Source: Iphione sp. A-MEVVRFRX5
Lineage: Eukaryota
Reading direction: 5' to 3'
DNA: 64,000 bases
NCBI GenBank assembly: GCA_976226885.1
Contig: OZ320316.1
Span: forward strand, 39,618,001 to 39,682,000
Below, one piece after another: positions 38,177 to 58,800 of the stretch (positions are counted from its first letter, which is position 1; every line of letters starts with the position of its first letter). The notes under the pieces were generated by a model. That model was not told the origin of the DNA. It saw nothing but the letters and a program-made list of their open reading frames with translations, and made no database searches. Made by a program: the position numbers and the translations under genes.

Positions 38177-38180
38177 CAAT
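38177..38180. repeat. Target-site duplication CAAT (left copy)
   Basis: CAAT immediately precedes the left LTR and immediately follows the right LTR (46702-46705). Confidence 0.9.
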
Positions 38181-38235
38181 TGTAACACAATGTGACAAGT
38201 GACGCCTTTGGGACTGGAGTTGTTTTTAAAATTGG

Positions 38236-38241
38236 TTTATT
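38236..38241 (-). terminator. Candidate polyadenylation signal (AATAAA) near the end of the 3' LTR
   Basis: AATAAA on the element strand about 55 nt before the LTR end and downstream of the TATA box, as needed to define an R region. Confidence 0.55.
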
Positions 38242-38334
38242 GAAATAATATAGTTTGAAGAGCAGCACAGTTCCACCACCCAGCCACCGCAGAGAAGAGG
38301 GTCCCTAGCACTGTCTACTCAGGGGAAGGCCTAA

Positions 38335-38406
38335 CAGCATCATCAGCACAGCACGGCACAGCAGCACAGCATCACAGCACGGCACAGCAGCACAGCACAG
38401 CAGCAG
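38335..38406. repeat. (CAGCA)-type low-complexity tandem array inside the LTR; copy at 46265-46336
   Basis: Contains a 26-nt unit CACAGCACGGCACAGCAGCACAGCA(T/C) repeated twice (38347-38398) within CAGCA/CACAG monomers. Confidence 0.85.
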
Positions 38407-38771
38407 GACATCGGTCAGCTTGGGCAGCACTTCCCCTGGTAGCAGCAGTGGAGGGCCTCCCTCAGGGTAGAGTCAGGCTGGTGGTCTTGGTGGTTCGGCC
38501 GGTTGTTGTCGTCTCTGCTCCTCCCTCCAGTCTGTCTGAGGTGGATGGATCCCACTCCTTATATACAGGCTGAAGCTCCTCCTATCTTGTCAGCAGGAGT
38601 GGTTCCCATCCATCCGACATCTGTCCGGTCACGCGCTGCTCCTCCACCTTGATATCTGTAGGGAGATATCATAAAGTCCTCCCCCCTCCACCAGTCACAA
38701 TAATATACACCTTTTATTTGAAATAACAAATTAAAGTCTCAAATTCTTCTTTTGAGGGGCATTGTGTCACA

Positions 38772-38780
38772 CGCGCCCCC
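38772..38780 (-). promoter_or_regulatory. Candidate polypurine tract (GGGGGCGCG), atypical
   Basis: G-rich run directly abutting the 3' LTR start; short and interrupted by C, so assigned by position only. Confidence 0.4.
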
Positions 38781-38839
38781 AAACAGGCGAACAATGACCG
38801 ACTTGCGTCTGTGTTCGTCACAGCTCTTCTGAAGAGTCA

Positions 38840-40849
38840 TCATTGGGTGGGGGACGCCAGTGGTACTCCCAGCATACTGGTCTTTGGGTCCTGGAGACCC
38901 TCGTCCCCGGAGCGATGTTCGCTGCCCGTCTGGTGACCTTCCTTCCGCCGCTGGCCAGGAGTAAGCCTCCCGGCGATGCTAACCGCATCTACCTCCATCG
39001 TGGATCCAACGACCTCGTCAACTGCAACAGACCTATAGTCCTCCCCCTTTCCCATGACAGACCAGCGCTTCAAGTACCTTCTGCATGAACAATATATTAT
39101 CATCGGTATAAGAGAGCTAATTAAACCCATTCCTACTGTTGTTAGCAACATTGTCCACATGGGCCAAGTATGGTCCTTTGTCTTTTGGCTTTCCTTCAGC
39201 TTTCTTATGAGGTGGGGCATCGGAATCTCATTAATTTCCTTAAGCTCACTTGGGATTTCTAACTTGGTGATATTTGGTATCTCCTCAACAAAAGGAGCCC
39301 AAATGGTCTCTTTGGTGCGATTTCCTAGCTGGATCACATCAAAGGAATGTGGTGGCAACCTCAGCTCACTCTCTTTATAGAAATAAGGTAAAAGGGTGAT
39401 CTGTTCACTGGTAGCTGAACAAGACATATTAAGTTGAACTATAGCCATCGGAGGAAGTGTGATAAGACTGCGTTTGTATGGGGTGGTCTGCTGACAATGT
39501 ACAGTAAAGCTTTCAGCCATTTGCGAGGCAACAACCCATGTGCCATCTTGTATATAATAGGCTGCTGGTAAGATTGCATTTGGCTCTACTATGGCTTTAC
39601 AGTATTTGTCTGTCCGAGCTTGATGTTTTAAAAATAGGGCAGTTATACATAACTTGCTAAGGCTAATTGGTTGGACAGCCTTCTTTAGTGGACAGAATTT
39701 TCTTATTGGATGGACACAAGATGTCAGCTCAGCATCTTCTAAAGGAATGTATCTTGTCCTCTGGGGATCTACAGCTATGGCTTTTGCTTCTAAGTGGTAT
39801 CTAGCTACCATTGAGGGGTTTCCTTTTGGATTAGTTTGCCTGCTAAGTAATGGAAGTGGCAGATTTATGATTTCATACACTTCAAAATCCCCCTCTACGT
39901 CTAATAATGGGATATGTACAACAGTAATGATTTGGTTTGGTTTGATGATCGTGCTACATGTGAGAAATTGGTAATAATTCCAGATGCTTCTACGGGGGTC
40001 ATCTGGGAGCTTCAGGTGGTATGGCAATTTGCTTTGGATGTCAAGGAGAAGATGCTGCAAGCTATGAGGGCTTAAAATATTAGGTGATACTCTTCCTAAT
40101 GACAACATGTTTAGTTGTAATTCTAGGTGTGATAAGTATGCAACTGCTTGAATAATGGTTTGCCTCACATCGGTAACTACCATGTCCAGTTGCATATGTG
40201 ATGAAATGAGGTTTTCCAGCTCTGACACTCTCCCAACTACAGCGAGAGCTCTAGAGAGATTGGTGAGTGTACTGTCTATGCGATGTAAGTTTGTGATGAT
40301 CTCATTTATTGATTGTCTATTTTCCATAATTTCTGTATGGGATACGTTAAGAATGGTTAAGCTGTCTTCGACTGAATGAGCGATCTCCTGCTGGTTCTCC
40401 TCAAGAGTCTCAACATGTCTTGTTACCTTTCTCAACTCGTCTTCTGACACAGTGCCAGTGATAAAACTTAATGCTTGGCCTATTATGGGTATTAAGGAAC
40501 GCTTAGTGCGGCTAAGTGTTTTCAGTCCCGTAAAACTGTTTAGAATCTTTATCCTAATTCGGTCGAGGTTTTTGATTTCTGCCTTCAAAGGTGTAAATAA
40601 ATGGCGGAACTGCAGGCGATGTGGGGAATCATACCTTTTAACTACAGTGTCGCTCAGGGTTGTAACTTCGTCTACGTTTTGGGCTACTTTGTTCATGAAG
40701 TGGTCAAATGGTTTTAAGTCCACTATGAGAGAGACTAGCCATCTTGACCTGGTTGTAGTTACTACATTCACTCTTTTAAATACTACATTATTGTTAATAA
40801 CCAAAGCACTGGCTGTCATAAGGAAGGCTACAACTATCAGTCTGATCAT
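38840..40849 (-). CDS. env: Envelope glycoprotein, class I fusion type (baculovirus F / errantivirus Env-like), 669 aa
   Basis: Third ORF inside the LTRs; hydrophobic signal peptide MIRLIVVAFLMTASA; furin site RTKR (aa 114-117, nt 40499-40510) followed by hydrophobic SLIPIIGQALSFITG; heptad-like region; Cys-rich ectodomain; five N-x-S/T sequons seen; C-terminal TM (WTMLLTTVGMGLISSLIPMIIYC) and cytoplasmic tail. Family assignment is from motif layout, not a search. Confidence 0.88.
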   Translation of the reverse strand: MIRLIVVAFLMTASALVINNNVVFKRVNVVTTTRSRWLVSLIVDLKPFDHFMNKVAQNVDEVTTLSDTVVKRYDSPHRLQFRHLFTPLKAEIKNLDRIRIKILNSFTGLKTLSRTKRSLIPIIGQALSFITGTVSEDELRKVTRHVETLEENQQEIAHSVEDSLTILNVSHTEIMENRQSINEIITNLHRIDSTLTNLSRALAVVGRVSELENLISSHMQLDMVVTDVRQTIIQAVAYLSHLELQLNMLSLGRVSPNILSPHSLQHLLLDIQSKLPYHLKLPDDPRRSIWNYYQFLTCSTIIKPNQIITVVHIPLLDVEGDFEVYEIINLPLPLLSRQTNPKGNPSMVARYHLEAKAIAVDPQRTRYIPLEDAELTSCVHPIRKFCPLKKAVQPISLSKLCITALFLKHQARTDKYCKAIVEPNAILPAAYYIQDGTWVVASQMAESFTVHCQQTTPYKRSLITLPPMAIVQLNMSCSATSEQITLLPYFYKESELRLPPHSFDVIQLGNRTKETIWAPFVEEIPNITKLEIPSELKEINEIPMPHLIRKLKESQKTKDHTWPMWTMLLTTVGMGLISSLIPMIIYCSCRRYLKRWSVMGKGEDYRSVAVDEVVGSTMEVDAVSIAGRLTPGQRRKEGHQTGSEHRSGDEGLQDPKTSMLGVPLASPTQ

Positions 40850-40857
40850 AGCTTAAC

Positions 40858-40880
40858 CTGGAAATATATATACAGAATGA
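40858..40880 (-). promoter_or_regulatory. Predicted splice acceptor for env mRNA (TTTCCAG|G)
   Basis: T-rich tract ending TTTCCAG, 8 nt upstream of the env ATG, in the 83-nt pol-env spacer. Confidence 0.6.
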
Positions 40881-40932
40881 TTATTAACCCTTCCCATCCG
40901 TATTGTCGCCTGGTGAGACAACACGCTTACTT

Positions 40933-42087
40933 CTAATAGTCAACTGCTAACCTGAGAATGGCTTCAATGCCTTTCACGGCTCGGCGTAAGCTTTTGTTCT
41001 TACGGCTCGCAGTTGCTCGTACATTTTGTACCTGTACATCCATATCGTCAATGTCCGTTTGTCCATTTTCAGTCTCACTATCCGTGGGCATTTCTAAGTC
41101 AGTGGGTCTATTGTTGGGAATGTTATCTTCTTGTGTGCTAATGTCCCCCTCTGTATGTTCGTCGCTACTCTCCCTCTCCATTTGTTCTTTTCTTTCCTCC
41201 CTCTCTCTCATCCGCTTAGCTAATTCCATCAGAGGAATATCTTCTTCCTCTGCAGAATCCTCCCTCTCCTTACGATACCGTTTCGCTAATCTCGCTAGTG
41301 GTTCATCCATTTCAGAGTCATCTGTCTCGCTGTCATGTTCTGTCCCATCACTACTGTCGTCTGGTACAACATAGCGTGAGGGTCTGAGTACTCGATTTTG
41401 GGCAGTTTTGTTTGATGGTATCTCCCAATCTTCGATATTTGCTTTCCGAAGGTTAGTAGCATGAGCTTTCAAGGTCTTACCGGTTAACTGGTTCTTTATG
41501 ATAAACGTAATTGGAGTCTTTTTCTCGATGATTCTATAATAAGGAATCCAACGTTTGTCCAGTTTGCCCTGTCTTTGGTGATTTTTATAGTAGACGGGGT
41601 CTCCTAATTCGAGTTCAACATAGTTTTGACTTTGGAGTTTGTATTTTTCTTGTTTTTTCTTAGCTTTCTTGACACGATGGTAAACAGTTCTAAAAACCTT
41701 ATGTTGGTTTTCTAATGCTTTTCGATGATGTTCTTCTCCCATGTATTTCTGGTGTGGCTTCATGATGTTGTCAATGGGTAAAACCACATCACGATTGTAC
41801 AACAAGAAATATGGGGAGTACTTGGTGGTCTCGTTTACATTGAATCGAATAGCAGCTAAGGCCTGATTTAAGTGTAAGTCCCAAGTCTCTCGATTATCAT
41901 TTGCTAACTTGCTAAGGATGTCATGCAAGGTTCTATGTGATCTCTCGACTCTAGCGTTACCAGCTGGATTGTAAAAGGATGTTTTCACATGGTGTATATT
42001 GAGTTTCTGAAGTGTTTCCCTAACAATTTTGTTTTCATTTTCTGTTCCATTATCTGTTACTAATTCCAAAGGTGAGCCGAAACGTGG
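40933..42087 (-). CDS. pol: Pol, C-terminal part: integrase catalytic core, GPY/F-like region and acidic tail (continuation after a 1-nt frameshift)
   Basis: Reads PRFGSPLELVTDNG (second Asp), GNARVERSHRTL (Glu), KYSPYFLLY, KRWIPYY; joins the upstream IN frame if one base of the run at 42088-42093 is removed. Confidence 0.92.
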   Translation of the reverse strand, partial: PRFGSPLELVTDNGTENENKIVRETLQKLNIHHVKTSFYNPAGNARVERSHRTLHDILSKLANDNRETWDLHLNQALAAIRFNVNETTKYSPYFLLYNRDVVLPIDNIMKPHQKYMGEEHHRKALENQHKVFRTVYHRVKKAKKKQEKYKLQSQNYVELELGDPVYYKNHQRQGKLDKRWIPYYRIIEKKTPITFIIKNQLTGKTLKAHATNLRKANIEDWEIPSNKTAQNRVLRPSRYVVPDDSSDGTEHDSETDDSEMDEPLARLAKRYRKEREDSAEEEDIPLMELAKRMREREERKEQMERESSDEHTEGDISTQEDNIPNNRPTDLEMPTDSETENGQTDIDDMDVQVQNVRATASRKNKSLRRAVKGIEAILRLAVDY

Positions 42088-45031
42088 AAAAAATTTCTTC
42101 TAGCAACAGATGTGAAATAGTATCTGCCGTCTTATCTGGTGTGGCAAATGACTCTGGCCATCCGCTATACCAGTCTACGAAGCTTACGATATATTTGTTT
42201 CCTGATAAGGTCTTTTGATATGGACCGGAAAGGTCTAAGGAAACTTTAGCCCAGGGATACGGTGGAAAGTCCGTTTCCTGCATTGGCGGTCTAGCTTTAG
42301 TGAGGCTTCGTGTTTGGCAGGGCACACATTGGGTTACATAGGCATAAATTTCTTTATAGAGATTTGGCCAAAAATATTTTTGTCTGATTGTCTCATATGT
42401 CTTATCTATTCCCATGTGTCCATTTTTATCATGATATTGTTGTAGAATTTTGCTTCTAAGTTGTTTTGGAATACAGATCCTGACCAAAGGGTCATTATCT
42501 GGATCTGTCAGGAAGCATAATACACCATCTGCTCTTACTAGGTAACGGCGACTAATGTGTTTTGGGGCTTCTCCCTGTCGTAATTGTTCTACTATCTGTT
42601 TTATGTTTTCATCCTTGCTCTGCTCTTCCCTCATGTCTAAACCTTGGAAGTCTTCAGCTTCATCTACCTCTGTTTCATTTATCCCATCGTCTTGCTCGGC
42701 AGTGAACTGTGCAAACTCTCTGGGGTTAAATTTGTTGGAATTTATTGCTCCTATATTCAGTGTTCTATCATCTACATCCAGATCTAGTTCAGCATCCAGT
42801 AACTTAGGGCTATTCGGGGATCTTGACAATAGATCTGCTATGGAGTTTTCTTCTCCCTCTAAATATTCTATTTTACAGTTGTAACCAGCAATACTTAGGG
42901 CCCATAGTTGTATTTTCTTATTTTGCATAGGGGACTCCAGAAGGTGCTTCAGGGGTTTGTGATCAGTCCTAATTACAAAGGTAGCATTGTGGAGGAAGTA
43001 ATCTAACTTCTGCAGGCTGTAGTAGATCGCAAAACATTCACGTTCGATGGTAGACCAGCGGGATTGTGTATCGCTAAGTTTATGTGAAAGGAAATATATT
43101 GGTTTTTCATTCTTACAATTTTGAATGGGTGGAAATTCGTCATCGTCGTCACAAGCTTGCATTAGACAAGCGCCTATGCAGTCTTGAGAGGCATCTGTAT
43201 ATAGAACATACTCTTTCTTGGTGTCAGGGTAGGCTAAAATAGGGATTGTTGTCAAACTGTCCTTCAGAAAATTAAATGCTGTTTGGCATTCATCGGACCA
43301 CTTGAATTTTGAATACTTTTTTGTTAAGGCCACCAGTGGTTGTGCGATCTGGCTGAAATTTGGGATAAACCGTCGATACCAGGAACAAGCACCAATGAAA
43401 CCTCTTACTTCCTTTACACTACTGGGAGGTGCTAATTTTCTTATAGCTTCTACTTTGTGGGGGTCTGGCTTAACTCCATGCTCGTTAATCATGAAACCAA
43501 GGTAATTTGTTTCTTCTTGCATAAATTGACATTTTTTTAGCTTTAGTTTGAGGCCATGCTCACGTAATCTGTCAAAAACAGCCTGAATGTGTGTGATATG
43601 ACTGTCGAGGTCTGGACTATGTATCAGTACATCGTCTAAATATGCAAAAGCAAAATCTTCTTGTCCCTGCAGAACAGTTGTCATAAGTTCCTGGAATATG
43701 GCAGGGGCATTGGAAAGTCCGAAAGGCATCTTAATGTACTCATAAAGTCCCTTGTGACAGGCAAAGGCACACTTTTCTCTGTCGTCAGGATGTACCCTTA
43801 CTTGCCAATATCCGGACTTTAAATCTAAGCTTGTAAAGAATTTGGAATTTCCCAGTCCAGCCAAGATATCATCTATCAAAGGTAGTGGGTAGCTAATTGG
43901 TTTCGTGATCTTATTCAATAATCGAAAATCAGTGCAAAATCTTTTCGTTCCATCCTTCTTATCTACTATCACCACAGGGAAGCTCCAACTTGATCTGGAT
44001 CGTTGAATTACACCTGCCTGCAACATGTCTTCAACTGCCTTCTCTATAATTTCGCGCTTCATAAGTGGGGTGCGGTATGGCTTCAGTTTGATTGGGGCAT
44101 TGTCTCCTGTGTCTATTCTCATCTGTACTGTTTGTGTATGTCCTAGATCTAGATCAGTGGCTGCGAATAGATCTCTGTTCTTCTCAACTAGTTTAGTGAT
44201 TAGGGATCTGTGTTCTTGTGGTGCAGAAATATCTTCTAACTGAAGTGGTTCTTTTTGTGTGTTTTGAGGTGTGGTTGTCTGTGTTATTTCTGAGATCTCG
44301 TGTTCAACTAAGGGTTCAATTCGTCCTAGAATGCAGCCTCTTTTCACTTTGATTGTCTTGTTACTGCTGTTGATGATGTTAATAGGTAATTGATTTTTGT
44401 CATTTAGTGTGACCACAGAATTTGTAATAGCTAGTCCTGGTTGTTCGCTGATAAAGCCCTGTCCTATCTCTTTCAGCATATACTCTGCCATCCTGTCATC
44501 CTTAATTTTCACCCTTGCCTTGCAAAGCATCCCTGTCTGTGGTGCAAGCACCACTGTCTTCATTGCCCTTACCACTGTTGAAATGTGGATATCTTCATCA
44601 AGGTTCACATACTCATCATTGATGCGTAAACTACCCAAATCGAAGTACAACCTCACGCCATACTTTACCAGCCAGTCCCGTCCTAGTATAACATTTCTGT
44701 TAAGTCCGTCAACTATAATGAATTTCTGGGGAATATTCTGCCTTCCTATTGTAAACTCAATCTTTGCCTCTCCTACAACTTTTAATGGTGTTCCATTAGC
44801 AGATTGTAACTGGATAGATGTTGGTTTCAGTGGGGTCTTCTGTTTTAACCTCTTGTATACTTTTTTATGAAGGAGTGTCACCTCTGCACCTGTATCTACT
44901 AATGCTCTGTATTTCTCTTTTCCGAATTTAATAAGGCATGATGTGGGGTTTCCTGCAATATTAATTATATGGGTAATTCCCGTTCTCTCTTCACCATTGA
45001 CCCTATGGGAAGAGTATCTTAGTTTTCCTCT
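42050..45031 (-). CDS. pol: Pol, N-terminal part: aspartic protease, reverse transcriptase, RNase H, integrase zinc finger and first catalytic Asp
   Basis: Frame is open from 45031, upstream of the ORF-track GTG at 44881, and includes protease ALVDTGA and ILGRDW; RT LDLKSGYWQV, MPFGLSNAP, YLDD; RNase H YTDAS, ERECFAI, TDHKPL, ADLLSR; integrase HDKNGH...CVPC and SLDLSGP. The frame goes out of register at the homopolymer 42088-42093. Confidence 0.95.
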   Translation of the reverse strand, partial: RGKLRYSSHRVNGEERTGITHIINIAGNPTSCLIKFGKEKYRALVDTGAEVTLLHKKVYKRLKQKTPLKPTSIQLQSANGTPLKVVGEAKIEFTIGRQNIPQKFIIVDGLNRNVILGRDWLVKYGVRLYFDLGSLRINDEYVNLDEDIHISTVVRAMKTVVLAPQTGMLCKARVKIKDDRMAEYMLKEIGQGFISEQPGLAITNSVVTLNDKNQLPINIINSSNKTIKVKRGCILGRIEPLVEHEISEITQTTTPQNTQKEPLQLEDISAPQEHRSLITKLVEKNRDLFAATDLDLGHTQTVQMRIDTGDNAPIKLKPYRTPLMKREIIEKAVEDMLQAGVIQRSRSSWSFPVVIVDKKDGTKRFCTDFRLLNKITKPISYPLPLIDDILAGLGNSKFFTSLDLKSGYWQVRVHPDDREKCAFACHKGLYEYIKMPFGLSNAPAIFQELMTTVLQGQEDFAFAYLDDVLIHSPDLDSHITHIQAVFDRLREHGLKLKLKKCQFMQEETNYLGFMINEHGVKPDPHKVEAIRKLAPPSSVKEVRGFIGACSWYRRFIPNFSQIAQPLVALTKKYSKFKWSDECQTAFNFLKDSLTTIPILAYPDTKKEYVLYTDASQDCIGACLMQACDDDDEFPPIQNCKNEKPIYFLSHKLSDTQSRWSTIERECFAIYYSLQKLDYFLHNATFVIRTDHKPLKHLLESPMQNKKIQLWALSIAGYNCKIEYLEGEENSIADLLSRSPNSPKLLDAELDLDVDDRTLNIGAINSNKFNPREFAQFTAEQDDGINETEVDEAEDFQGLDMREEQSKDENIKQIVEQLRQGEAPKHISRRYLVRADGVLCFLTDPDNDPLVRICIPKQLRSKILQQYHDKNGHMGIDKTYETIRQKYFWPNLYKEIYAYVTQCVPCQTRSLTKARPPMQETDFPPYPWAKVSLDLSGPYQKTLSGNKYIVSFVDWYSGWPESFATPDKTADTISHLLLEEIFSTFRLTFGISNR
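44971..45028 (-). promoter_or_regulatory. Predicted -1 programmed ribosomal frameshift signal (gag-pol)
   Basis: G GAA AAC heptamer (45022-45028) directly before the gag TAA; 7-nt spacer; stem CTCTTCCCAT/ATGG(T)GAAGAG; gag and pol frames overlap only over about 45022-45031. Confidence 0.75.
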
Positions 45032-45924
45032 TCAATGAGGTTCACTGACTTCTTCAGCATAGGACAGTTCTTCTTCATGTGACCCTTCCCTTTACACTTG
45101 TGGCACTCCAACTGGGGGCAACTACTCTTGAAGTGGCCTGGCTGCTTACAGTACCAGCACCCTTCCTCACTCTTTGTCACCTCGACCTCTTGTACTCTGG
45201 CCTTGCACGGGCCCTGGTGATTTCGTCTACAGGTGCGGCATACCCGCTTCGGCCGCGTATAATCTACTTCCATTGGCTCTTCCTTACGTTCAGGCTTTGC
45301 ATATCCATATCCACTAAGGCCCCCCTTTAGATCTAGTTTCTTTCTGAGGTTTTGTTCCCGCATAGCTATTTTTATGGCCTCGGTTAAGTCCTTCGGATCT
45401 GCCCTTAACACTGACATTTTCATGCCAACGTGGCTGATGCCATCCACAAATATGTGTATGAGCTGGCTTTGTACGACAGCTTCTTTTTCCTTTCCAGGGA
45501 AGGCCTCCGTCGCTAACTCAATGACCCTCTCTCCGAATACCTGCACGTTCTCCCCTTCCTTCTGTTTAGCCTTCCTTAGGAGAGAGAAGGCATATTGACT
45601 ATCTGTTACTTCCGAAAATCGTTGAGCTAACTCTTTTTTTAGGTCCTTCCACTCTGCTCTGGGGTATGTGAGAAGATATCGATGAATAAAGTCCCCTGCT
45701 GGTCCTGCACTCGTTTGATAGGCCACCTTAGTGGTCGCTATCTCGTCTAAGTTTGCTAATAACTGACAGCGCTCTATAGCTCGTACCCACTCTTTGTATT
45801 TGCTAGGGGTGCCTGCAAATTTCTCTATGCTTTGTATGGCCCCCTGTTCCCTGAAAGCAGTGGACATACCATTCATGCTTCTGGTCAGAAGGTCGAATAG
45901 CTGCTTCAACTCTGGTCCTGCCAT
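45019..45924 (-). CDS. gag: Gag (capsid/nucleocapsid), 301 aa
   Basis: First ORF after the PBS with a strong start context (ACC ATG G); retrotransposon-Gag-like core (WVRAIE..., FVDGI); two CX2CX4HX4C knuckles (CWYCKQPGHFKSSC, CHKCKGKGHMKKNC) plus a variant CX2CX3HX3C. Confidence 0.93.
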   Translation of the reverse strand: MAGPELKQLFDLLTRSMNGMSTAFREQGAIQSIEKFAGTPSKYKEWVRAIERCQLLANLDEIATTKVAYQTSAGPAGDFIHRYLLTYPRAEWKDLKKELAQRFSEVTDSQYAFSLLRKAKQKEGENVQVFGERVIELATEAFPGKEKEAVVQSQLIHIFVDGISHVGMKMSVLRADPKDLTEAIKIAMREQNLRKKLDLKGGLSGYGYAKPERKEEPMEVDYTRPKRVCRTCRRNHQGPCKARVQEVEVTKSEEGCWYCKQPGHFKSSCPQLECHKCKGKGHMKKNCPMLKKSVNLIEEEN

Positions 45925-45939
45925 GGTACTAAGAAAAGG

Positions 45940-45948
45940 ACTTACCGG
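45940..45948 (-). promoter_or_regulatory. Predicted splice donor in the leader (CCG|GTAAGT)
   Basis: Consensus GTAAGT 5' splice site about 20 nt upstream of the gag ATG. Confidence 0.6.
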
Positions 45949-46077
45949 TTATGAAGATACACAGTCGGTCGCGATGATGGTTCTGCGGGTCGTACAGCAG
46001 CAGTACTTCTTTGCGTTGTGTCTGTCTTCCTTCGTCAGGAATTCAGCAAGCTGTAAATGTAATAGAGCTTTCTGGTT

Positions 46078-46095
46078 ATCCTGGTCACGGCACCA
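46078..46095 (-). promoter_or_regulatory. Primer-binding site complementary to the 3' end of tRNA-His(GUG)
   Basis: Minus strand reads TGGTGCCGTGACCAGGAT; the plus strand ATCCTGGTCACGGCACCA matches the 3' 18 nt (including CCA) of invertebrate-type tRNA-His as I recall it. It lies 15 nt inside the 5' LTR boundary. Confidence 0.85.
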
Positions 46096-46110
46096 AAAAG
46101 GTTAGTCACT

Positions 46111-46701
46111 TGTAACACAATGTGACAAGTGACGCCTTTGGGACTGGAGTTGTTTTTAAAATTGGTTTATTGAAATAATATAGTTTGAAGAGCAGCACAG
46201 TTCCACCACCCAGCCACCGCAGAGAAGAGGGTCCCTAGCACTGTCTACTCAGGGGAAGGCCTAACAGCATCATCAGCACAGCACGGCACAGCAGCACAGC
46301 ATCACAGCACGGCACAGCAGCACAGCACAGCAGCAGGACATCGGTCAGCTTGGGCAGCACTTCCCCTGGTAGCAGCAGTGGAGGGCCTCCCTCAGGGTAG
46401 AGTCAGGCTGGTGGTCTTGGTGGTTCGGCCGGTTGTTGTCGTCTCTGCTCCTCCCTCCAGTCTGTCTGAGGTGGATGGATCCCACTCCTTATATACAGGC
46501 TGAAGCTCCTCCTATCTTGTCAGCAGGAGTGGTTCCCATCCATCCGACATCTGTCCGGTCACGCGCTGCTCCTCCACCTTGATATCTGTAGGGAGATATC
46601 ATAAAGTCCTCCCCCCTCCACCAGTCACAATAATATACACCTTTTATTTGAAATAACAAATTAAAGTCTCAAATTCTTCTTTTGAGGGGCATTGTGTCAC
46701 A
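46111..46701 (-). repeat. 5' LTR (591 bp)
   Basis: Matches 38181-38771 base for base on visual comparison; ends form an imperfect 12-bp inverted repeat (plus strand TGTAACACAATG...CATTGTGTCACA); lies upstream of PBS and gag on the minus strand. Confidence 0.96.
46488..46495 (-). promoter_or_regulatory. Candidate LTR TATA box (TATATAAG)
   Basis: About 205 nt into the 5' LTR on the element strand; copy at 38558-38565. Confidence 0.55.
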
Positions 46702-46705
46702 CAAT
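46702..46705. repeat. Target-site duplication CAAT (right copy)
   Basis: Same 4-mer as 38177-38180, directly abutting the terminal ...CACA of the right LTR. Confidence 0.9.
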
Positions 46706-46731
46706 TCGTGCCATCCCCTTAATCCCTTCGT

Positions 46732-46870
46732 NNNNNNNNNNNNNNNNNNNNNNNNNNNNNNNNNNNNNNNNNNNNNNNNNNNNNNNNNNNNNNNNNNNNN
46801 NNNNNNNNNNNNNNNNNNNNNNNNNNNNNNNNNNNNNNNNNNNNNNNNNNNNNNNNNNNNNNNNNNNNNN
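46732..46870. other. Assembly gap (139 N)
   Basis: Run of N beginning 30 nt outside the 5' LTR. Confidence 0.99.
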
Positions 46871-49800
46871 TGGTGTGGCCAGGCTTGAATAGTGTCCACT
46901 TCACGACCACCGTAGCTGCGAGGGTGCTTCCAAGTGAACCAGCCACCACCGGCACCACCGTCAGCACCACCGTGCTGCTACCACTGGGATATTGTGAGAC
47001 ACTGAGCCAGCAACACATCCGCCCTGTCCAGCGTGCACCCTGAGTTGCCCCAGAAAGAAGCGTTCCAGCGTAACTGCCGGCTAACACGAACGTATAATAC
47101 ACCAATTACGTCCTTTTGAAAATGTAAATAGTTGCGCCGCCTGCCTGATTAAATGTGTTTTCGTGGAGTGATGAGGATAATTGCCGGCGTCCAGCCTGTG
47201 CCGTCTGGGCGGCCCAAGCCGGACACTGCGCGCCGCGCACTGCCGGACTTGGCCGGGCCGCAATTGGGCCGTGCTCACAGGGCTATTGTGGCCGGCCATG
47301 CCAGGCCCCTTGCAAGCCGGCCTCTGATGAGTACTAATCACTGTAATTTACTCCGTGCATAAAGAGGTCCCTTTTTGCGCAGGCGAAGCCTCACCCTTTA
47401 ACAACTAGGGTCACTGACACATTATGCAGGCACCATCCTGCCACCTTCCTACTAACCGCTGTTTTCTCCGCTTGTTTCACATTGGTCAGCTGCCGTCAAC
47501 CGGGGTGCAACACAATCACAAATAATCTGATAAGGGTAGGCCGCTCGAGATGATCAATCGGCTCCTGTTTGAGTCGGTGAAATTAGATCTCCTTCGTCTA
47601 CATCTCTACCTGGCCACTAACAATGTTTGAGTAGTATTGTGTTACAATCTTTGGGCAAACGGAATGTCAAATGGACAGACTCTCCTGAAATAATCAAAAA
47701 GTACTTAAAGTAGAAATGCACCTACATTGTTGTATATCTTTAAAGACAGCTGAATGAATGAATGATTGGGGTACCAAAGACATTTTGTCATTCTTTTACG
47801 TGATAGTCCCTTCAACCCCCAGGTTTTGTCCCAGATTTACTGTCCCTCTTGGGTGTGGCTGAATGAATCCAGACTGTGCGCAAGATGCACCGATTTGCGT
47901 GTTGTGGTGGACATTCCAGGCTAAAGCAATGGGTGATCGAGGGAACAAAGTAGGACAAAGTGGGAAGAGATGGACTGTCCCAATTGCCAGGGGGAGGAGC
48001 TACTCAGTGCGGGTGTCCGGGACATGAGCTGCTCTATAACAACGGGGGCGACAAGATGGATCGGCGTTATTGTGCTTATTGACCACTTAATCTAGTGTTG
48101 TCATGGCAAGGAGGCTGACCCGCGTCTCCTGGGTGGAGGCAGTTACTATGGCAACAATGGCGATGGTGTGAGACCAGGGTGAGGATGCGGACGGATCATC
48201 TGGACCCTGGAGGAAGATGGACGACAGTGACACCTCCAGGTGGCGCATCCCTCACCGGGGAGGGGAGGTTACTCCCCTTCAGGCTCCCAATACAGATTAA
48301 TCAGGGTGGGCGGCCGCGCCATTGCGTAAGGGGTCTCGCGGTGCGGCTGCCCGGTGACAGTTGCTGTTAATAATGCGTGGACAAATGGACTCCCCTGGAC
48401 CCCTCCTGTTAATGAATTGATCCTGCCGCGTCACCCCGGGTGGAGAATAACTGCAGCGTGTCCCCCCACTGCCTTTTGTATTGTCTGGCAGCAGGATTAA
48501 ATCACAACCCCTTGCAAGCGTCTCGTTAGCTTGCCATCCTGTGGATCCTTCGGGATCCAGTGACCACGGCTAGATCTATGTTCACCTGGTCGCCACAGAC
48601 ACACCTAATGGCCTCAGCCTCCACCAATTAATGGCTCCCCCGTGCCAGCATCCTCCCAATAGTTTTGTTTTTCCAATTATAATTGGCGAGTGGTGGGGAG
48701 ATCTACCAATTGTAAATCACTGCTAATTGGGACAACTGGTCGGCTTCATAACTCAACACCGAGTTATTGATAGTGAGAGCTTTATGGCTTGTTCTGCTGT
48801 CGTTGTCTTTATTGTGATAAATTGTCTGCTCTCTGCCGCCCGCCGAGCTGCTCGGACGGCGACCCGTGAGCAACTCAGTGCTAAAACACATTAAAACGTC
48901 TAGCAAATCACAACAAAGCAAATCCCTTATTAATTTCATATACAAGGAGGTTTACTACGTCTCCCAGAATAAAAAGGATTCCTCGCTGAAACAGTCCTTG
49001 CAATACACCTCAAAGTTAATTTGTGTACATGTACCTGTAGAAATCCAAAGGTTTAAATATCTAAAACCAAAGATGACAAATGGTGAGCACACAGTTTACG
49101 TCGCAAGCAGTTTTCGGAACTCCTATATTTGACTCTGTGCACCCCTGGGTTGAGAGCTCAGCGGCTAAAATGGATGGAGGGCTAGAACAGACAACAGATG
49201 AACAACCTCACAGCAAAATCAACCTCAGAGGAGAGACGTACAATACATGACAGTTTCACAGGAAATAAAGGAAAGGTCATGAAACCACAACATGGTATTA
49301 ACACACATCACGGATGTTATTTTTATAGTCCTAAACGTTAGACAGTGTCACCTATTTCAAATCCCCTGGCCAATAAGCGGTGAAGGTAAAATGTTCCACG
49401 CGTATGAGATTTGAGAATTCAGGGTGAAGATGTTAGGTCGAGAAAGAGACAGACATGCTGGTGTCCACATAACTGAGCATGACTCGACCTCAGAAGTCGA
49501 CCTAACTGTAACTAGCGGTTTCCTGCTGGTCGAGCCATCGGAGACCTACCTTTCCTTGTCTGTCCCCTACTGGCCTCGAGGCAAGAGGCCAGAAACTTTC
49601 TAAATCTCAGCATAACGTCCCCTTTGTTTGCAGGTCCAAGAGGTGAACGGAGGAAGAGGGGGAGTTATAAGGTTTCGCTGTGCTGTATAGCTTTCAATTC
49701 TGCACTAGTTTTCCCTTGTTACATTGATGGTGTTTCCATTATGGTTGTATGCGTATGCTGACGAGGATAAAACATATGATGAATATTGACGTCGATTAAA

Positions 49801-52800
49801 CTATGCTGTAGTGAGCGGGGGATTATTTGCTGTCCAGGCTATCGTTTTCTCACAACTGCCGCCCACCCCCCGAAGGCCGTAACTCACGCTGGCCGTCCGA
49901 TCAGTCAGACGTGGGCTTGCTCGTCGGATAAATGCCTCCTTTCTTCCAGGTGTTGGGTTTACGTTGGGCCAATGGTGAGCTATGCTACCTACCGAACACC
50001 GACCCCCTGCCCACTGAACCGACTGGCCGCCGGCCGGCAGCCCGCCTGTCCAGCCAGCCACACCCGCCGGGGACTCGGGCGCCGGTGGGCCCTTTGGCGC
50101 CCACAAGACGCAGCAGGTTACCGTCATTCCCTGGAGCGAGTGGCAAACTTTAGAGGCACAGGAATGTGCTATACTTCTCCCGAACGTAACCGCCGCCATT
50201 GTGTGCAAGGGCAGCTAAGAGAAATCATGGCCTATGGAATACGGTATAATCTTATTAGGCGTGCACGTACATGTCTGCACTTACGCACAGATGAAACTGC
50301 AACTAATGACACTGAAGCATTATATTTTCCCACAAGAACTTCGTAGCACTTTTATTTTTGATTGCCCTCCCATCCAAACCTTGCATGCAATTCTGGCAGA
50401 AACCATTTACGGCAATAACGGAAGTTTCTCTTGTTAATTTTTTTTACAACCACGGTCCAGGTGGACATTTATCTAGTGGCAGGTGTTAATGTGTTAGAAG
50501 TGACCCCAGGCTAGCCTGGAACAAAGATAGCACACACAGAACAGAACAAGGAAAAAAATAATTTACGGCGAATTTTATTTGATATAGATTTGTGTTCGAG
50601 AGTGTTCCACTGCCAAAGCCTTCTTTACTGTCAACATGCTATATGTGGTCCCTACCTCGGACTGGTGTCGACTTCCTGTCCCAAGGTACCCACAGCGTGC
50701 ATGCGTCCTTACCTGTAAGAACAAAAAAAAAGAGCAGAGTGAGAGGTCAGTAATTACATGTACAAAAAGTACACTCGACGCTTGCTATAACAGTCAATGG
50801 GAACTGGTGGACAAATGGATGAGTGCTTGCGCTGACCACAGGCACGCTCATCCGATGGGAGCAGGTGGTTGAATGGCCCAAGTGGACATTGTCGGGCGTG
50901 GGTTCATGACACAGCTTGAATGGAAGGGGTTGGGGGCAGGATGAGAAGGGCGGATGTAATGGTGACGAGGGAAGGTTGGCGCGATGGGAGTCAGACAGCA
51001 GGGGGGGGGGGGGGTTTGAACGTACGCAGAATGGCCAACGCTGAAGGACAACCACATACACATACGCACGCGCACACGCACACGCATGGAGTGTCTATAT
51101 CGGCACATGCATGCCATCCGTACGTACATCAAACACCGTGACACTATCAAACCTGTAGGAAGACCCGAGCGTCTGCTTTATTAAAGAGCAGCGGCCATTA
51201 CCCCATTACGTGGAAGGCCAGAAGCCAGGCCAATCAAAGCCAGTGCTTGCAGTGCAGCAAACCTGCCATGGCCTGACTCCACCAACATGCAGAACATAAA
51301 AATGTCCTTTTTAATATCGGGGGGTCAGCAGCAAAGTCCGCATCCACACTATCCGCGAATAAGTTAACTCGAAATACAGGTCTTTCCGCACCAATTTGAC
51401 TATAAATTTGATAGTTCTGCTGAAGGAGAGCTGTGATTTGTTTTAGAGTAGACAACAAAATGCTGTAATCTTTGGTACAAAGTGGCATGTATATTTACAT
51501 GACACAAAATTATCTTTAGGCTCTCCCGACAGAATTAGGGGGCGGCCAGACATGCTGGGTGTGGTTCCTATGAGACACATCTTGTCACGACAGGTGCCAT
51601 ACAATACATGTACATTTTGATAAAGAAACAGATCTGCAGGTCATTCATTATAGTTTTCGGGTCAAAAAGAACGTGACGTTTATGATAACAAATTTAATAT
51701 TCAGTGAGATGAACAAAGTGACAGTCAATGAAACGAAATGAAACAAATCATTAAAACGTGAAGACTGGTTGTTGCTCAAGAGGCTTTCAATGCATCTATG
51801 GGTTGTATAGGAATAACAGAATTACGTATATTACGCATGATGGCACCTTTCAATCACTGAAAAGAGTTCATTTACATGTACTGCGAGAGAGATATTAGCT
51901 TATGTGTTAACCCCGGTGGATAAAGCGAGGGCGATTAAGGTTGAATTAGTTTATCGTTAGCTATCCCTTGCAGACAGCTCTCCCTCTCAGATGGGAAAGA
52001 CTAGTCAAAGATAGCACATGCAGCAGAGCATTTCTTATAATTATCAGTGAGGAATATATGTCATACTCAGAAAAAAGTGAAAAGAGGACGACAACCGTGC
52101 ACGGGGCGATGAGAGGTATGGGCAGAAGATCGATTGAACTGATGCAACCAAACTTGATAGGACATTCAGATAATGGGGAGAAGGTTGAAACGGGTGGAAG
52201 GTGCGGGGTGGGGGATACAGTCACCCGTCCATCCCACCGTCCATCGAATCATGCCAAGTAATAAAACATGAGGCTACGATTTGCGCAATCAGCGACGCAA
52301 ATTTAGCATCAAATTCAATTATACAGGCCTAAGCCCTCAAAAATGCATCCGGCGGCCGCCGAGGACAGCGGTCAATGCCGACTGATTTGCCTAAATGGGC
52401 AAATCATCGGTGGCCACATAAACCCGGCGACCAAGTCGGGGTTTATGGTGCTGGTGCTGGCCTAATTAGAATTGGTGATGATTTCCTTGGTTCTAGCAAC
52501 CGCTCAACCATATTCTTATCTTATTACTGCGCACGGCCAACTTCAATTCCTGTTCAATAATCTTACCGTGCCTGATGCCCAATTGGGGCCCATTTGTTTG
52601 GACGTAATCTAGTTTGCATACATAACATCTACCCAAGCTGAGCCCAGAAATATCTGAGCAACAATCGATATATCCCTAATGGCATACATAATTGCAAAAG
52701 CTTGCGTTAATTCGGTGTTAATGTTTCAGGAACAGCAAGGGTTAGTAGGAAACTATGGACGTTTGGTGCATTTGCATAAGTCACAAAGCACATATCTCAA

Positions 52801-55800
52801 AAGCATCGCTTGCCTCGTATGGTAATTAGCAGCCATTTGTAAGTCTTTACATGTGGATAATCTTGGCTTTCAGTCAAAGCGCCGGTATTATGACCCAGGG
52901 TCAGCCATGCCTGTTCTTATCATCCTACCTAGTATCTGATATCACAGGTAGTATTGTATCAGATCTATATATCACACAGATATGTCTCGTTTCTATATGC
53001 CTACCACAGCTGTTGTAACTTTATCTTTCTCTCGATTACTTTTCGGTCGATATGCAAGAGACAGGCCACGTCACACGCGTATACTTACATCATGTCAGGG
53101 ATGGGCAAAGCTGCGTCTAATATCGTATAGATAAGTACGCGAGGAACACATATCCACAATGTACTGAGAATGTTGTTGGTGTGTTGCTAATGATATATTC
53201 ATTCTGTAAGAAAATGAGAAAGTTAAAAGCCTTCAAATCATACTAATTGGCAGCAGCACGCGGCCCGTGGGAGCAGTTAAAGGGGGCCCCACCCTTTTAG
53301 GCCGAGCCAAGCAGTAACTCAAGCTGCCAGAGCATCTCAGATCCTGACTGAGATAAACATGAAGCACATGTATATGGCAGGCCATGGCGGACACAGCCCA
53401 GGGTCCAGGTAGGTTCTGATTGAGCTGATAGGCCGGTAGAGGTGATGTCGTGCTAGCCCATTGTTCTCAACAAACATGGCAAGAGAAGCAGGGCTCGTAT
53501 TTGCTTTCACATGCATCACCTACCCCCAGCACCCACCCACCCACCCCCTCCCTCTGTCTCCTCCATTTTCCATTCCCTTTTCCCACTGGTCTGCTGGTGG
53601 CCCAAGGCTAGCATTACCAGCCACTCTCCCAACCCCCCCCCCCCCTCATGTCATTTGGACATGTGCTAGGACTAGCTGCTGCAGTAGCACAGCATGTCAG
53701 ACGGGTCAAGCGTGGAGGCCAGGTCAGGGGTCGGGGTCGGTGACCTGTTACACTGAGGTGGAGAACAGGTCATTTCCATGCAGCTGTTCAGTCAAGTCCA
53801 TGTTGTTTGTTTGAAAATGCTCGTGATGTCTTTGTCTACAACATGCTAAAATTTAGTCTTGCAAGTCATAGATGAACGAAAGGAATGGGACAGTTTTATC
53901 ATCGTGGGGGTCCAAATAGGGTGAAATCGTGAGCTGATCTTCCAGACCAGGCGAGAATACCGGGTTCATACAAAGGGTAATGGTGGCTTCGGGGCCTGAC
54001 GGACAGCCATCCACGTTTCCATTCAGTATCTTCCACGAGGCACAAGCTATACCATCACGCGGTATCATCTTCATGCAGGTCTTGGTGCACCTGCTAGGAT
54101 ATCATTTATTGGGTGTGGCTAGGTTGGTAACATACCACATCGTACTAGGGAAAAAAATCCCAGGATAATACATTCCGTATTCGTGATGTCAATGTTTTAT
54201 CAAAGTATGGCGTTGGGTCATTATGGATTATCCACTTCTCCGTGAATGCCATATTGAACGGAAAGTAAATGTAGTGTCTTTGATATCAAATACGCTTGTA
54301 CTATTGTTATTGTAAGGCACTCAATCACCTTTGTTTGCGCTAATACACTAAGCTTTCTTCATTTAACAAAATGTGGCCTTTAGAAAGTAACCTATATCCC
54401 ACTGACTGATAAGATGATATAAATGTAAGCTTAGTGTAGGCATATGTATACAAGAAGTTCCGGTAGATGTACCGTTTACTGTGGCATTGTGAAACTTGAG
54501 TGTGATACAATAGCTTGATCGGCAAGTACAAATGTATAGGAAAGCGGGGAGACAAATGTGTGTATCTCAAACATTTGGTCAGGTAACAAAACAAAAATGT
54601 GCGTGCATGTGTGTTAAGAAAACTGCCTCTGACTTTTTACATGAATAACGTATATATTACTTGGCTACATGGCCCATCCTGGCCATATCAGGGGAATCCA
54701 AAGCATGCATGCTTAGGGGAAACTTCCATCGTGAGAGAAGCTGATGGTCAACTGGCCAGGTCAGATGAGTAACTTCGCTGTAACCTTGGCGACCCCCACC
54801 CCTCCCCGCCCTTCCTCCATGCCCTCTGTATGACACGAACATGGTGTATCAGCCTGCCGTACACACGAGAGGGGTCAGTTTTCATGCGGCATTCCGTACC
54901 CCTCCACGTATGACGACGTTTCTTTTTCCCCTTTCATTAGGCAGGCAGTCAGTGATGCTTCCATGCGGCATCGCGTGATAAGTCAGATAAGCTCCAAGGA
55001 TGACGACATGTCATTTCTTGTTTCTATATCATCTTTATGACAGAGCGTGTGCTTTTTTCCTTATCACGGGAAGCAATGCGCTGAGTATAAAAACGCCTGC
55101 AATAATATGTACGTCTACGTAGTGCGTGGGTATAGGGAAAGGTTGGGGTCACTTTACCCATTTATCTGGTGATCTCAATCTGTTGTCTGTTCAGTGTTCA
55201 ACCGGCCGTACCTTGCCACGAAATTACCAACTAATAAGGCATATTAGGGCTACGTGCGGTTTAATGCTGTCTGTTCTTCTCGCCCGCCAGACGACGTCAT
55301 GATACCCCAGTCAGCACAATGGGCTTTGGTCTGGTACCCATGTTGCGTCCGTGTATCCAGTCACCCAACCGTCGCTTGCCCCTGAGGAGTCCCACGTATG
55401 GGACAGACATCACCTCTCTAGTATGCTTTAAGTATCTCGTCCGTTCGAGCGAACCTCACCCGGATAAACCGCAACTTGAGAAAGTTAAGCCTGTCCATCA
55501 CGGTGCGTTCGGGTTAACCGCCGGGCCCCCGATGTGTTTTGGGGACGAGTTGGTCACATTTTAATTCAGTGCACTATGGTGTGGTTTGTGGTTACACAAA
55601 GATGGCGAGTTATATAGCTACAAGGGTTTCAGCAGACGGTGGTCATAGTCGGATATCCAAACACAAAGAGCACTTTCTAGGCTCCGCCTTATCTTAAACC
55701 ACTGAAACGTGATTTACAACTCGAGTATGCTGGGCTTATTGAATATGGTGCAGATATTAACTTTTGACGGGCAAGGTAGACGACGTAGACATTTGACTGT

Positions 55801-58800
55801 TCCGCTTTTAATGCTTGTCGCCCGAATTCAAACCCCGTGCCCCCATCCCCCAACGCTACCGATGGCAAATTCAGCCAAATTTGACATTCTACATAAATAT
55901 GTATGTCTGGACTGCATGGTGACTAATTTTGGATTCGAGGGTTCACCGCGGGGTTGCCATATACATGGACATGATGTTGAAGCAATGCCCCGTTGACCAT
56001 GCTGGGAGTGGGCATGCCATATGGTGGCGGTTACCGACTAGTCATTACTCTTGGGACCGGCTTGACCAAAAACTGACCCAGCCCTCCTCGGATTGTCATC
56101 CATCAGAGGCCGATCCAGAAAAAAATCACACCTTTTAGACTCTCCTTCATCCACTGCATGCCGAAATGGCTCCACTGCCTGGCTGGACCTACACAACATT
56201 CTCCTTCTTCGCCCACTTTTTTTTGTCTCTATAAATCCCCCTCAAACACAAGCGATAGCTTTGCTGCCTTTTCATGGCCTCAATGATCTCGAAAACAGCT
56301 GCTGATGACGGTGTATACCTGTCCGTCAACATACAAATTAATCTGGTGGTTACAGCGGCTGTGGTAATACCCGCAGCCTTTCGATTCTCATTTTCTATGG
56401 CCGGCTCTCGTCATGCATTGAGCAGACTTTAGCCGGCTGGCCAACTTTCACCCAAATATGTATGGGAACATCTGGCCCTCGCTTCAGCAAGGCAACCTGA
56501 CTGAACCAACCTCAAAGCCCCTCTCCTCTCTGACTAGACATGCTCACCCCGTACTACGCAACAGCCACATTAAAATATCACAATCATCCAGAAAATACCA
56601 CGAACAATATTTGCATTAGCATATTGCAAGACTCTCTGTCACACGGAAATTCATATCAATAATGAGGCGTAAAGGTAAGAAAGTCCGTTCGCACTATTGA
56701 CACAGAATAACCCTAGTTATTCCAATCTTTTCTTTCCTCATCGGGTACTTTTTAATCAGTTTAGTGTAGACTTGAACTCATCTAGTGTCACTGTGCGTCA
56801 TGTCAGCGAGCAGGGCTGGCGGACTACCTTTGTCACGGGGGCCCTCTTACCACTAGTTACGACTGAGTGACCCGGCCCTCTCGTCATCACCTGGCCATGT
56901 CAAACAAATTGTGCTGACCCCCCTATATCAGTGTCAGTCGATGGCGCCGCCACCCTACTGTCATTATGGATGGGGGTCTCGCTGCCGCCTTGGTCGCCTT
57001 GAAAGCATGCTTCAGCGTGGCCAGAATGTGCCTCAACTATGGCCGCAGCCAGAGAATATTGGTCAGTTGGACAGGGGGTGTGCAACCAAATCACATCATT
57101 ACCAATACATTACTGCGTATTACATGAACAGGACTGGAGATCACTAAAAATTATAGTCTCTAAAAGACATACACACTCTGGTAAATAACGTCAGTCGATA
57201 AAATGAAATATTGTGATGAGGTGAAAGGTCTGTAATGTAAAAAAAATGGATATTTTTCCATTCCTGACATCCTGAAACGTCTCTGCGATGCCTTCTGTAG
57301 AGGGGAGAACAAGGATTTTGCTAAGAATTCGTAGTAAGCAGTGGAGGACGACGGTCAACGCTCCTCAACAGACACACAGTTAAATAGAAACTTGAAAGTT
57401 GGCTGGGGCAGGAGGACTCCTTTGGGGTTGGGCCCAGGGTCTCCGAGCGGCAATTAATAGCTAACTGATCGTCTTCTAAAAAAAAGTCGGAACCATTGAG
57501 GCCGGTCTCTCTGGGGGAGAGAATGGGACGTCGGGGACGGTGGTCCTTGGTCGAGGGGACCGGGCGTGGGCGACCGGGTGGGCCGTCTGACCGAGAGAGG
57601 GGGCCGTCCTGCTAGTCACGGCCACTGAACAAGGAAGCCGTCCACAGAGAGCCTCCATATTGGACGGGGGTGCGTGGCCGGCGCGCTATCTAAAGATAGG
57701 CACAAGATGATCGTCACCCCAGCAGAGATCAAACCATTTATCTGGCTGTAGCACGGGGGCTAGTCTAATCTTGGTAACACGATACAATGATGCAGGTGGC
57801 CACAGCCACTAAAGTCTATTTGAAGTTAATGTGAGGACTTACATAGAGTTCAACTTTGTTAAGTGTAGGGTCAATGCAAACAGATACCATTTTCAGCTTA
57901 CCTGTAATGGTACACAACGTGCATGTTCATATGTTTACCTGTCCGCGCATCCGAAAATGTAAATACTAGTCAGGTGCTTTGAATGTTTGATACATATTTA
58001 CCACACGTGAGAATACTGCATCAAAATGTGGTAAATGGACGTATTACGGGCATGCACTGGTAAAACTATGTTTTATTCGTGATTTAGAAAGAAAAACACA
58101 AGAAAGTATAGTATCTTTCGAGAGTGGCTTTGCATAAATCCTCCAAAGCCGATGGTGCGGCGCAACTGCGTGCAGCAACGACCTCTTCTGTACTGGTTAA
58201 TTTCATGTTTGTGTTGTTGTCTGTGTCTTCAAGTTTGAGTGTTCGGACCTTTTGAAATTCTATACGTTCAAGTCCGAGCAATAACTGCAGACCAGCAAGA
58301 AACCAATATATGTATTTGTACATCACAGAAGACAGATGTTTCAAACAGGCCCTTGGATATGCAAATAAGTCCTGTTCCACATGGCAGACCACTGGCCTAC
58401 TTGAAAGCTTCACTCCAGACGTTTGAGAACAGAGGCTTGAGACGGGGGTCGTCATTTAACTCATTAAAATTAAATTAAACCCACCACGCGTCCTACTCCA
58501 ATCCCACAGGAAGTTATCCTCAAAGTCGTCAGAATTCTACAGTAAATAATATAACGAGTACGCTGGTACACGATACAAATTATTGCCTGAAACACATGAC
58601 AATTGTTCTTAATTGATTTTTTTCTTCTTGAATAATTGTAAGGAAGCCCCGTTGGGAGCCCCGCGTCCTGGTGACCCTGACTGACCCTGGGCAGGTGTGG
58701 TCGGCCTTAGAGTGTGCAAGCTGCCGTAACCTCCAGTAACAAGCATAACCCCCGGTAAACTGATGTAACGGCCTACCCCCTGCCAGCTCCCCTCTCCCGT

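Follow-up and report, generated by a model that had tools for sequence, protein, structure and literature searches.

The locus examined here raises the question of how a retrovirus-like element in a 64-kb window (the whole stretch of DNA that was analysed, 64,000 nucleotides) is built, how recently it was inserted, to which lineage it belongs and whether its family may still pass between cells. Our analysis makes it highly probable that the locus carries a full-length Ty3/gypsy provirus whose LTRs are identical, whose gag and F-type env are open and whose integrase has one frame break. The insertion likely dates from roughly the last million years, and the element likely belongs to the mollusc and annelid 'ancient errantiviruses'; a life cycle can be proposed for its family. 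The kind of element is a known one, being one more young env-carrying gypsy beside the approximately 1500 already listed, and it matters as a clean and compact example in which the signals predicted for gag-pol frameshifting, for env splicing and for a stem at the primer site can be read.

The provirus lies on the minus strand and runs from 46701 to 38181 (8521 bp), and it is the single copy within the 64-kb window, where neither another copy nor a solo LTR was found. Its LTRs begin with TG and end with CA and carry 12-bp terminal inverted repeats with a single mismatch. They are flanked by a CAAT target-site duplication, for which the chance of a 4-bp match is approximately 1 in 256. Together with the primer-binding site and a weak polypurine tract, these are features expected of Ty3/gypsy elements (Metaviridae); the domain order of pol by Pfam is protease, RT, RNase H and integrase, and the matches to RT_RNaseH and Integrase_H2C2 are consistent with the same assignment. 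Homologues of the open gag are 37-45% identical to it. A sequence-only reading of this DNA had described LTRs without visible difference, an intact target-site duplication and uninterrupted gag and env, and had taken the element to be a young, env-bearing Ty3/gypsy provirus; this is supported by an alignment with 0 mismatches over 591 bp, by CAAT on both sides and by open frames of 301 and 669 aa. The U3 of each LTR also holds an inverted pair, TGATATCT-N6-AGATATCA (46601-46580 and 38671-38650, minus strand), a possible site for a dimeric factor.

Table 1. Features of the provirus and its target site, in positions of the 64-kb window.
Feature	Position	Strand	Basis or remark
Target-site duplication CAAT, left	38177..38180	.	
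3' LTR, 591 bp; poly(A) signal 38241-38236	38181..38771	-	
Polypurine-tract-like, short G-rich stretch adjoining the 3' LTR	38772..38780	-	Weak, inferred; L002 has a similar G run before its LTR start
env, 669 aa, predicted F-type class I fusogen	38840..40849	-	Pfam Baculo_F, model
Predicted splice acceptor; its end lies 8 nt upstream of the env ATG	40858..40875	-	Sequence; recurrence in relatives
pol, second frame: remainder of integrase core, C-terminal domain, acidic tail	40933..42099	-	
Mononucleotide run at the pol frame break, inside the integrase core	42088..42093	.	
pol, first frame: protease, RT, RNase H, predicted 'mini' bridge domain, integrase zinc finger, first catalytic D	42050..45031	-	Pfam gag-asp_proteas, RVT_1, RT_RNaseH, Integrase_H2C2; model for the bridge
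Predicted -1 frameshift signal (heptamer and hairpin)	44987..45028	-	Sequence, folding, relatives
gag, 301 aa from ATG, CCHC zinc knuckles	45019..45924	-	Pfam zf-CCHC, 2 stretches
Predicted splice donor, 21 nt upstream of the gag ATG	45940..45945	-	Sequence; recurrence in relatives
tRNA-His primer-binding site	46078..46095	-	First 12 nt exactly complementary to the His_GUG 3' end
Spacer of 15 nt from LTR end to primer site; predicted pairing with U5	46096..46110	-	Folding
5' LTR, 591 bp; TATA-like box 46495-46488, AATAAA 46171-46166, simple CTGTG-type repeats	46111..46701	-	
Target-site duplication CAAT, right	46702..46705	.	

The one departure from an intact provirus concerns pol, which is split over two reading frames (Table 1). 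Of 120 pol homologues listed, the 78 of at least 1240 aa were kept; all 78 hold both halves in one protein, and the two alignments abut in 77 of them. This agrees with the single pol lesion noticed before and rules out a programmed frameshift at the integrase break, which is thus a lesion or an error and not a matter of design. The frame is broken at six A-T pairs between the first and second catalytic aspartates, and the second frame contains the second D and the E of integrase, 35 residues apart. As assembled, two of the three catalytic residues are absent from the pol reading frame, and the copy is predicted to lack a working integrase. The continuous ORFs for RT and integrase by which the available text of a recent survey defines 'intact' elements (Chary and Hayashi, eLife 2026; PMC13524379) are missing here, which lowers the standing of this DNA as an intact copy, not the kind of family to which it belongs.

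It is distinctly possible, though we lean against it, that the break arose in sequencing or assembly and that the animal itself carries an undamaged copy. The break lies within a mononucleotide run, the usual site of long-read and 454 errors, and it is the only lesion in approximately 6.9 kb of coding sequence; however, the six other runs of at least six identical bases in gag and pol all keep the frame, and RT and DNA polymerase also slip at such runs, so that a real lesion would be expected at the same kind of place. Beyond the break, the tail of integrase (41010-41310, minus strand) is acidic and contains two D/E-x-P-L-x-x-L repeats, a motif found in a looser form ([IVLM]PLx[EKQDN]L) in 69 of the 78 full-length homologues and in a stricter form in 48. 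It is possible that this motif serves as a tether to a host chromatin protein. A reading as PxVxL, the HP1-type motif, was rejected because the middle residue varies. Searches with the tail gave no usable Atlas match, and no paper was found that treats the motif together with integrase.

The env gene bears on whether the family could be infectious. Its product matches Pfam Baculo_F above the cut-off (E 9.9e-09) and has a hydrophobic N-terminus, an RTKR furin-type site at residues 114-117 followed by a fusion-peptide-like, hydrophobic, glycine-containing stretch, five N-glycosylation sequons, conserved cysteines, a transmembrane helix at approximately 564-592 and a tail of approximately 75 aa. 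Among its 35 homologues (24-40% identical), 27 were taken for alignment, the eight shortest or weakest being left out, and RX[KR]R is present in 26 of the 28 aligned rows. The best fold matches of a structural model (mean pLDDT 72) were baculovirus F proteins (E 1e-22); among solved structures the model matched RSV F (E 1.5e-09), with TM-scores of only approximately 0.3. A sequence search also found the PDB 'fusion protein' chains 9w4c and 9w4d (E 2e-05), and the Atlas features agree. Both the sequence and the model thus give env the look of a working class I fusogen, as far as prediction goes, and the operational mark of an errantivirus given in the survey, an env-like fusogen ORF after pol, is present (PMC13524379).

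That the family nevertheless moves only inside the cell, or that its env has another purpose, so that it is not infectious, seems to us rather unlikely. The survey, in the parts available, does not regard env-based transmission as established beyond Drosophila, and its discussion reports no experimental test outside that genus (PMC13524379). Yet the signal peptide, the furin-type site, the fusion-peptide region, the cysteines and the membrane anchor are all conserved across relatives that are only 27-39% identical, a pattern that suggests selection to keep the fusogen working. Infectivity itself has been demonstrated for gypsy-type elements of Drosophila, whereas for the present family it is a possibility.

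The absence of any difference over 591 bp places a 95% upper bound of 0.5% on the divergence of the LTRs, and if rates of 1e-8 to 2e-9 per site and year are assumed, from which the host rate may differ, the insertion is likely younger than approximately 0.25-1.3 million years. Identity of this kind speaks for a young element, not necessarily for an active one, and the currently active, possibly infectious family proposed in the sequence-only reading goes beyond it. An assembly gap of 139 N (46732-46870) begins 30 nt outside the 5' LTR, and the scaffold also holds a gap of 129 N; because of the nearby gap, the perfect identity may owe something to the assembler. That the assembler collapsed the repeat and that the insertion is older than it appears is improbable all the same, since CAAT agrees on both sides and the flanks therefore belong to one insertion, and since gag, env and both pol halves show no premature stop except the one caused by the break, although a collapsed interior would look alike. 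We thus retain a recent insertion as the preferred reading.

Signals for expression were sought in the element and in 88 related loci that were fetched and screened. The gag frame ends with G GAA AAC TAA, and pol follows in the -1 frame. An in-frame NNNAAAC heptamer lies within the last seven gag codons, with pol in the -1 frame, in all nine relatives examined, and in four of these it has the strict form; L017, in which gag is cut short, and L014, L041 and L080, in which the gag end is outside the view, were left out of this comparison. The heptamer of the element itself departs from the strict X XXY YYZ pattern. A hairpin is predicted 7 nt downstream (45014-44987); hairpins at this place have z below -2 in five of the nine relatives, and that of the element is weak (z -1.57, with 28 of 300 shuffles equally stable). 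Inspection by eye gave no consistent support for a pseudoknot at this place. From these features, -1 frameshifting is predicted to occur where gag ends.

The env message is predicted to arise by splicing between a GTAAGT donor and a pyrimidine-CAG acceptor, each close to a start codon (Table 1). A donor-like site occurs within approximately 55 nt of the gag ATG in eight of ten relatives, and a pyrimidine-CAG acceptor precedes env wherever the start of env could be inspected, in seven of seven related loci, two of them near-copies; both counts were made by eye and carry no chance control. There is also an acceptor-like pyrimidine-AG directly after the donor, 4 nt before the gag ATG (45936-45922, minus strand), and further donor-like sites follow the pol stop (40933-40925) and lie in the integrase tail (41480). 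Alternative splicing of the element RNA is possible. The main text of the survey mentions neither frameshifting, splicing and slippery sites nor a spacer between LTR and primer site (PMC13524379).

It is this spacer that sets the element apart from the textbook arrangement. The primer-binding site noticed in the sequence-only reading is real but begins 15 nt past the terminal CA, the position of which is set by the 3' LTR and the target-site duplication. In retroviruses and Ty3 the primer site lies approximately 2 nt from the terminal CA, and integration usually trims two bases. A linear cDNA made here by the standard mechanism would carry the spacer beyond the CA, and integrase or a host nuclease would therefore have to trim it. 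The primer is assigned from the His_GUG 3' end listed in supplement 1 of the survey (PMC13524379). Folding predicts a stem between the spacer and sub-terminal U5 (46133-46125 with 46113-46105; z -5.39, none of 200 shuffles being as stable), and it predicts a stem made of other letters in two relatives, L001 (14 nt, z -2.63, G-U pairs included) and L002 (13 nt, z -4.01). L010 and L023, with spacers of approximately 9 nt, form weak stems, and L005, L009, L015 and L017 form none; the stem is thus significant in three of the nine sequences folded, the LTR ends of the relatives being inferred from the terminal motif and not from a second LTR.

By analogy with the retroviral U5-IR stem, the U5-spacer stem would most likely act in RNA at priming. 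In the accounts of Rous sarcoma virus and of the similar Tf1 structure, the stem likewise stands just upstream of the primer site (PMC3601003, PMC4600332, as far as their available text goes), whereas here one predicted arm lies outside the LTR, in a spacer of 13-15 nt. In the table of the survey, the primer site is 9-21 nt from the LTR end in nine of 13 pure His rows with zero mismatches, and in a portion of that table it is -1 to 1 nt from the end in all nine zero-mismatch non-His rows, seven of them nematode; the LTR ends are BLAST-defined in both cases (PMC13524379). The long-spacer elements did not cluster significantly on a quick tree (63 of 500 shuffles), and nothing relevant on long LTR-primer spacers was found in the literature searched, which lay outside most subscription journals. 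We propose tentatively, and with slightly more doubt than belief, that in a His-primed, env-carrying Ty3/gypsy clade found in marine invertebrates the LTR end and the start of reverse transcription are 9-21 nt apart, that the spacer and U5 form a stem, that a U5 overhang of approximately 15 nt is removed instead of a dinucleotide, by an undescribed end-processing, and that the family may still be infectious. If the long spacer is upheld, the cDNA end and the integrase substrate would differ from the textbook, and tools that seek the primer site only beside the LTR would miss the primer of this clade. In a distant family with 38% RT identity (L081-L084), an identical 18-nt His primer site stands at position 350, approximately 6.6 kb upstream of RT, which implies a much longer 5' region.

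For the placement of the element, the survey of invertebrate genomes offers the main frame, with 1512 gag-pol-env Ty3/gypsy elements, of which 1386 are present at least twice (PMC13524379). According to its available text, insect elements have a pseudo-RNase H bridge and the 'ancient' ones a mini domain; 14 of its 17 pure His_GUG rows are annelid or mollusc, all 14 with an F-type env; and cephalochordates have no pol-env region in any of four genomes and no place among the listed elements (PMC13524379). Our model of the bridge (pLDDT 84.5) has an RNase H fold followed, in predicted secondary structure, by helices and three short strands; it agrees with the mini domain as the survey describes it, the comparison being by description and not by superposition, and the five-strand pseudo-RNase H bridge of insect errantiviruses is absent from it. 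The gag-pol-env order, an F-type env that has a furin-type site and a fusion peptide, an RNase H followed by a predicted mini domain, a tRNA-His primer (the 14 annelid and mollusc rows) and near-identical LTRs are all shared with the 'ancient errantiviruses' of the available survey text, from which this copy differs in its broken integrase (PMC13524379). On the quick tree, the element falls in a clade of 34 of the 48 rows (SH-aLRT 99) with oyster and abalone proteins and has no close sister. Because this tree, from which L020 was dropped, holds no GyDB, Repbase or survey reference elements, clade membership is argued from indirect traits; by sequence and model together, the element is likely a member of the mollusc and annelid 'ancient errantiviruses'.

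Drosophila gypsy, ZAM and Idefix, which have a spliced env message, a gag-pol frameshift and a 4-bp target duplication, share the three-ORF plan and the F-type env. They belong to another pol clade, however, in which the bridge is a pseudo-RNase H and the primers are mostly Ser, Lys or Leu according to the available survey text (PMC13524379), and the comparison with gypsy and ZAM first drawn for this element chose the wrong clade, the bridge being of the predicted 'ancient' type. The named homologues come from Magallana, Haliotis and Mytilus (oyster, abalone and mussel), and others come from contigs under Thiodiazotropha bins, which we infer to be host DNA. The closest unnamed relatives are L002, L005 and L006, together with P0036 and P0037; the first three are metagenome contigs with the identical gag-pol-env plan, and L002 also has the 18-nt His primer site and the U5-spacer stem. 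Among the matches listed, the best identities were 69-70% for RT/RNase H, 40% for env and 45% for gag, with no near-identical family, and as the RT/RNase H identity reaches 70% at best, the protein collection searched probably lacks this family. The novelty at first suggested for the lineage must still be set lower, as young, multi-copy, His-primed elements with F-type env are already listed for annelids, bivalves and gastropods in the survey portion available (PMC13524379). A scan of viral contigs with RT/RNase H gave 19 pattern matches, none of them confirmed, and a paper on annelid LTR clades (PMC8556966) contains no whole-word env, envelope or PBS. Animal-type retrotransposons were also met in records filed as bacterial MAGs of Sedimenticola, Paracoccaceae, Latescibacterota and Thiodiazotropha (L080-L087, P0046, P0048, P0070, P0088, P0131 and P0153), likely through host contamination.

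These predicted signals can be combined in a model of the life cycle of the family. One LTR-driven RNA would be translated into Gag, ribosomes that shift to the -1 frame over the last codons of gag would produce Gag-Pol, and splicing from the donor just before gag to the acceptor just before env would provide the Env message. Reverse transcription would be primed by tRNA-His beside the U5-spacer stem, and a furin-cleaved class I fusogen may pass particles between cells of one animal. The most plausible direction of such passage would be from soma to germ line, by analogy with Drosophila gypsy, for which it has been shown. The copy as assembled could supply Gag, protease, RT and Env; lacking a working integrase, it would depend on sister copies for its movement.

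The DNA around the element (1-38176 and 46706-64000, 55 kb) contains no Pfam match, long ORF or interspersed repeat pair. None of the 177 flanking ORFs of at least 75 aa reached the Pfam cut-off, a sub-threshold SirB match being taken as chance; homeodomain and nuclear-receptor motifs were absent from all six frames, and no Rfam family or tRNA was found in the window. The flanks have 49% GC and a CpG observed/expected ratio of 0.74, against 0.50 in the element. They contain TACATGTA 16 times where 0.9 is expected, a motif that occurs in lancelet and lophotrochozoan genomes alike. A host among the lancelets, or in another lineage from which such elements are unreported, would turn the find into a range extension, and a lancelet host would close a gap in the survey, but this reading is very unlikely: the nearest named proteins are molluscan. 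From their sequence, the flanks look like regulatory non-coding DNA. At 50713 (minus strand), a strong pyrimidine tract and AG are directly followed by GTAAG, as in the recursive splice point of a very long intron; a tract of this kind is present at one of the six YAG-GTRAG sites. If this is truly a recursive splice point, the element would lie in sense orientation inside a long host intron.
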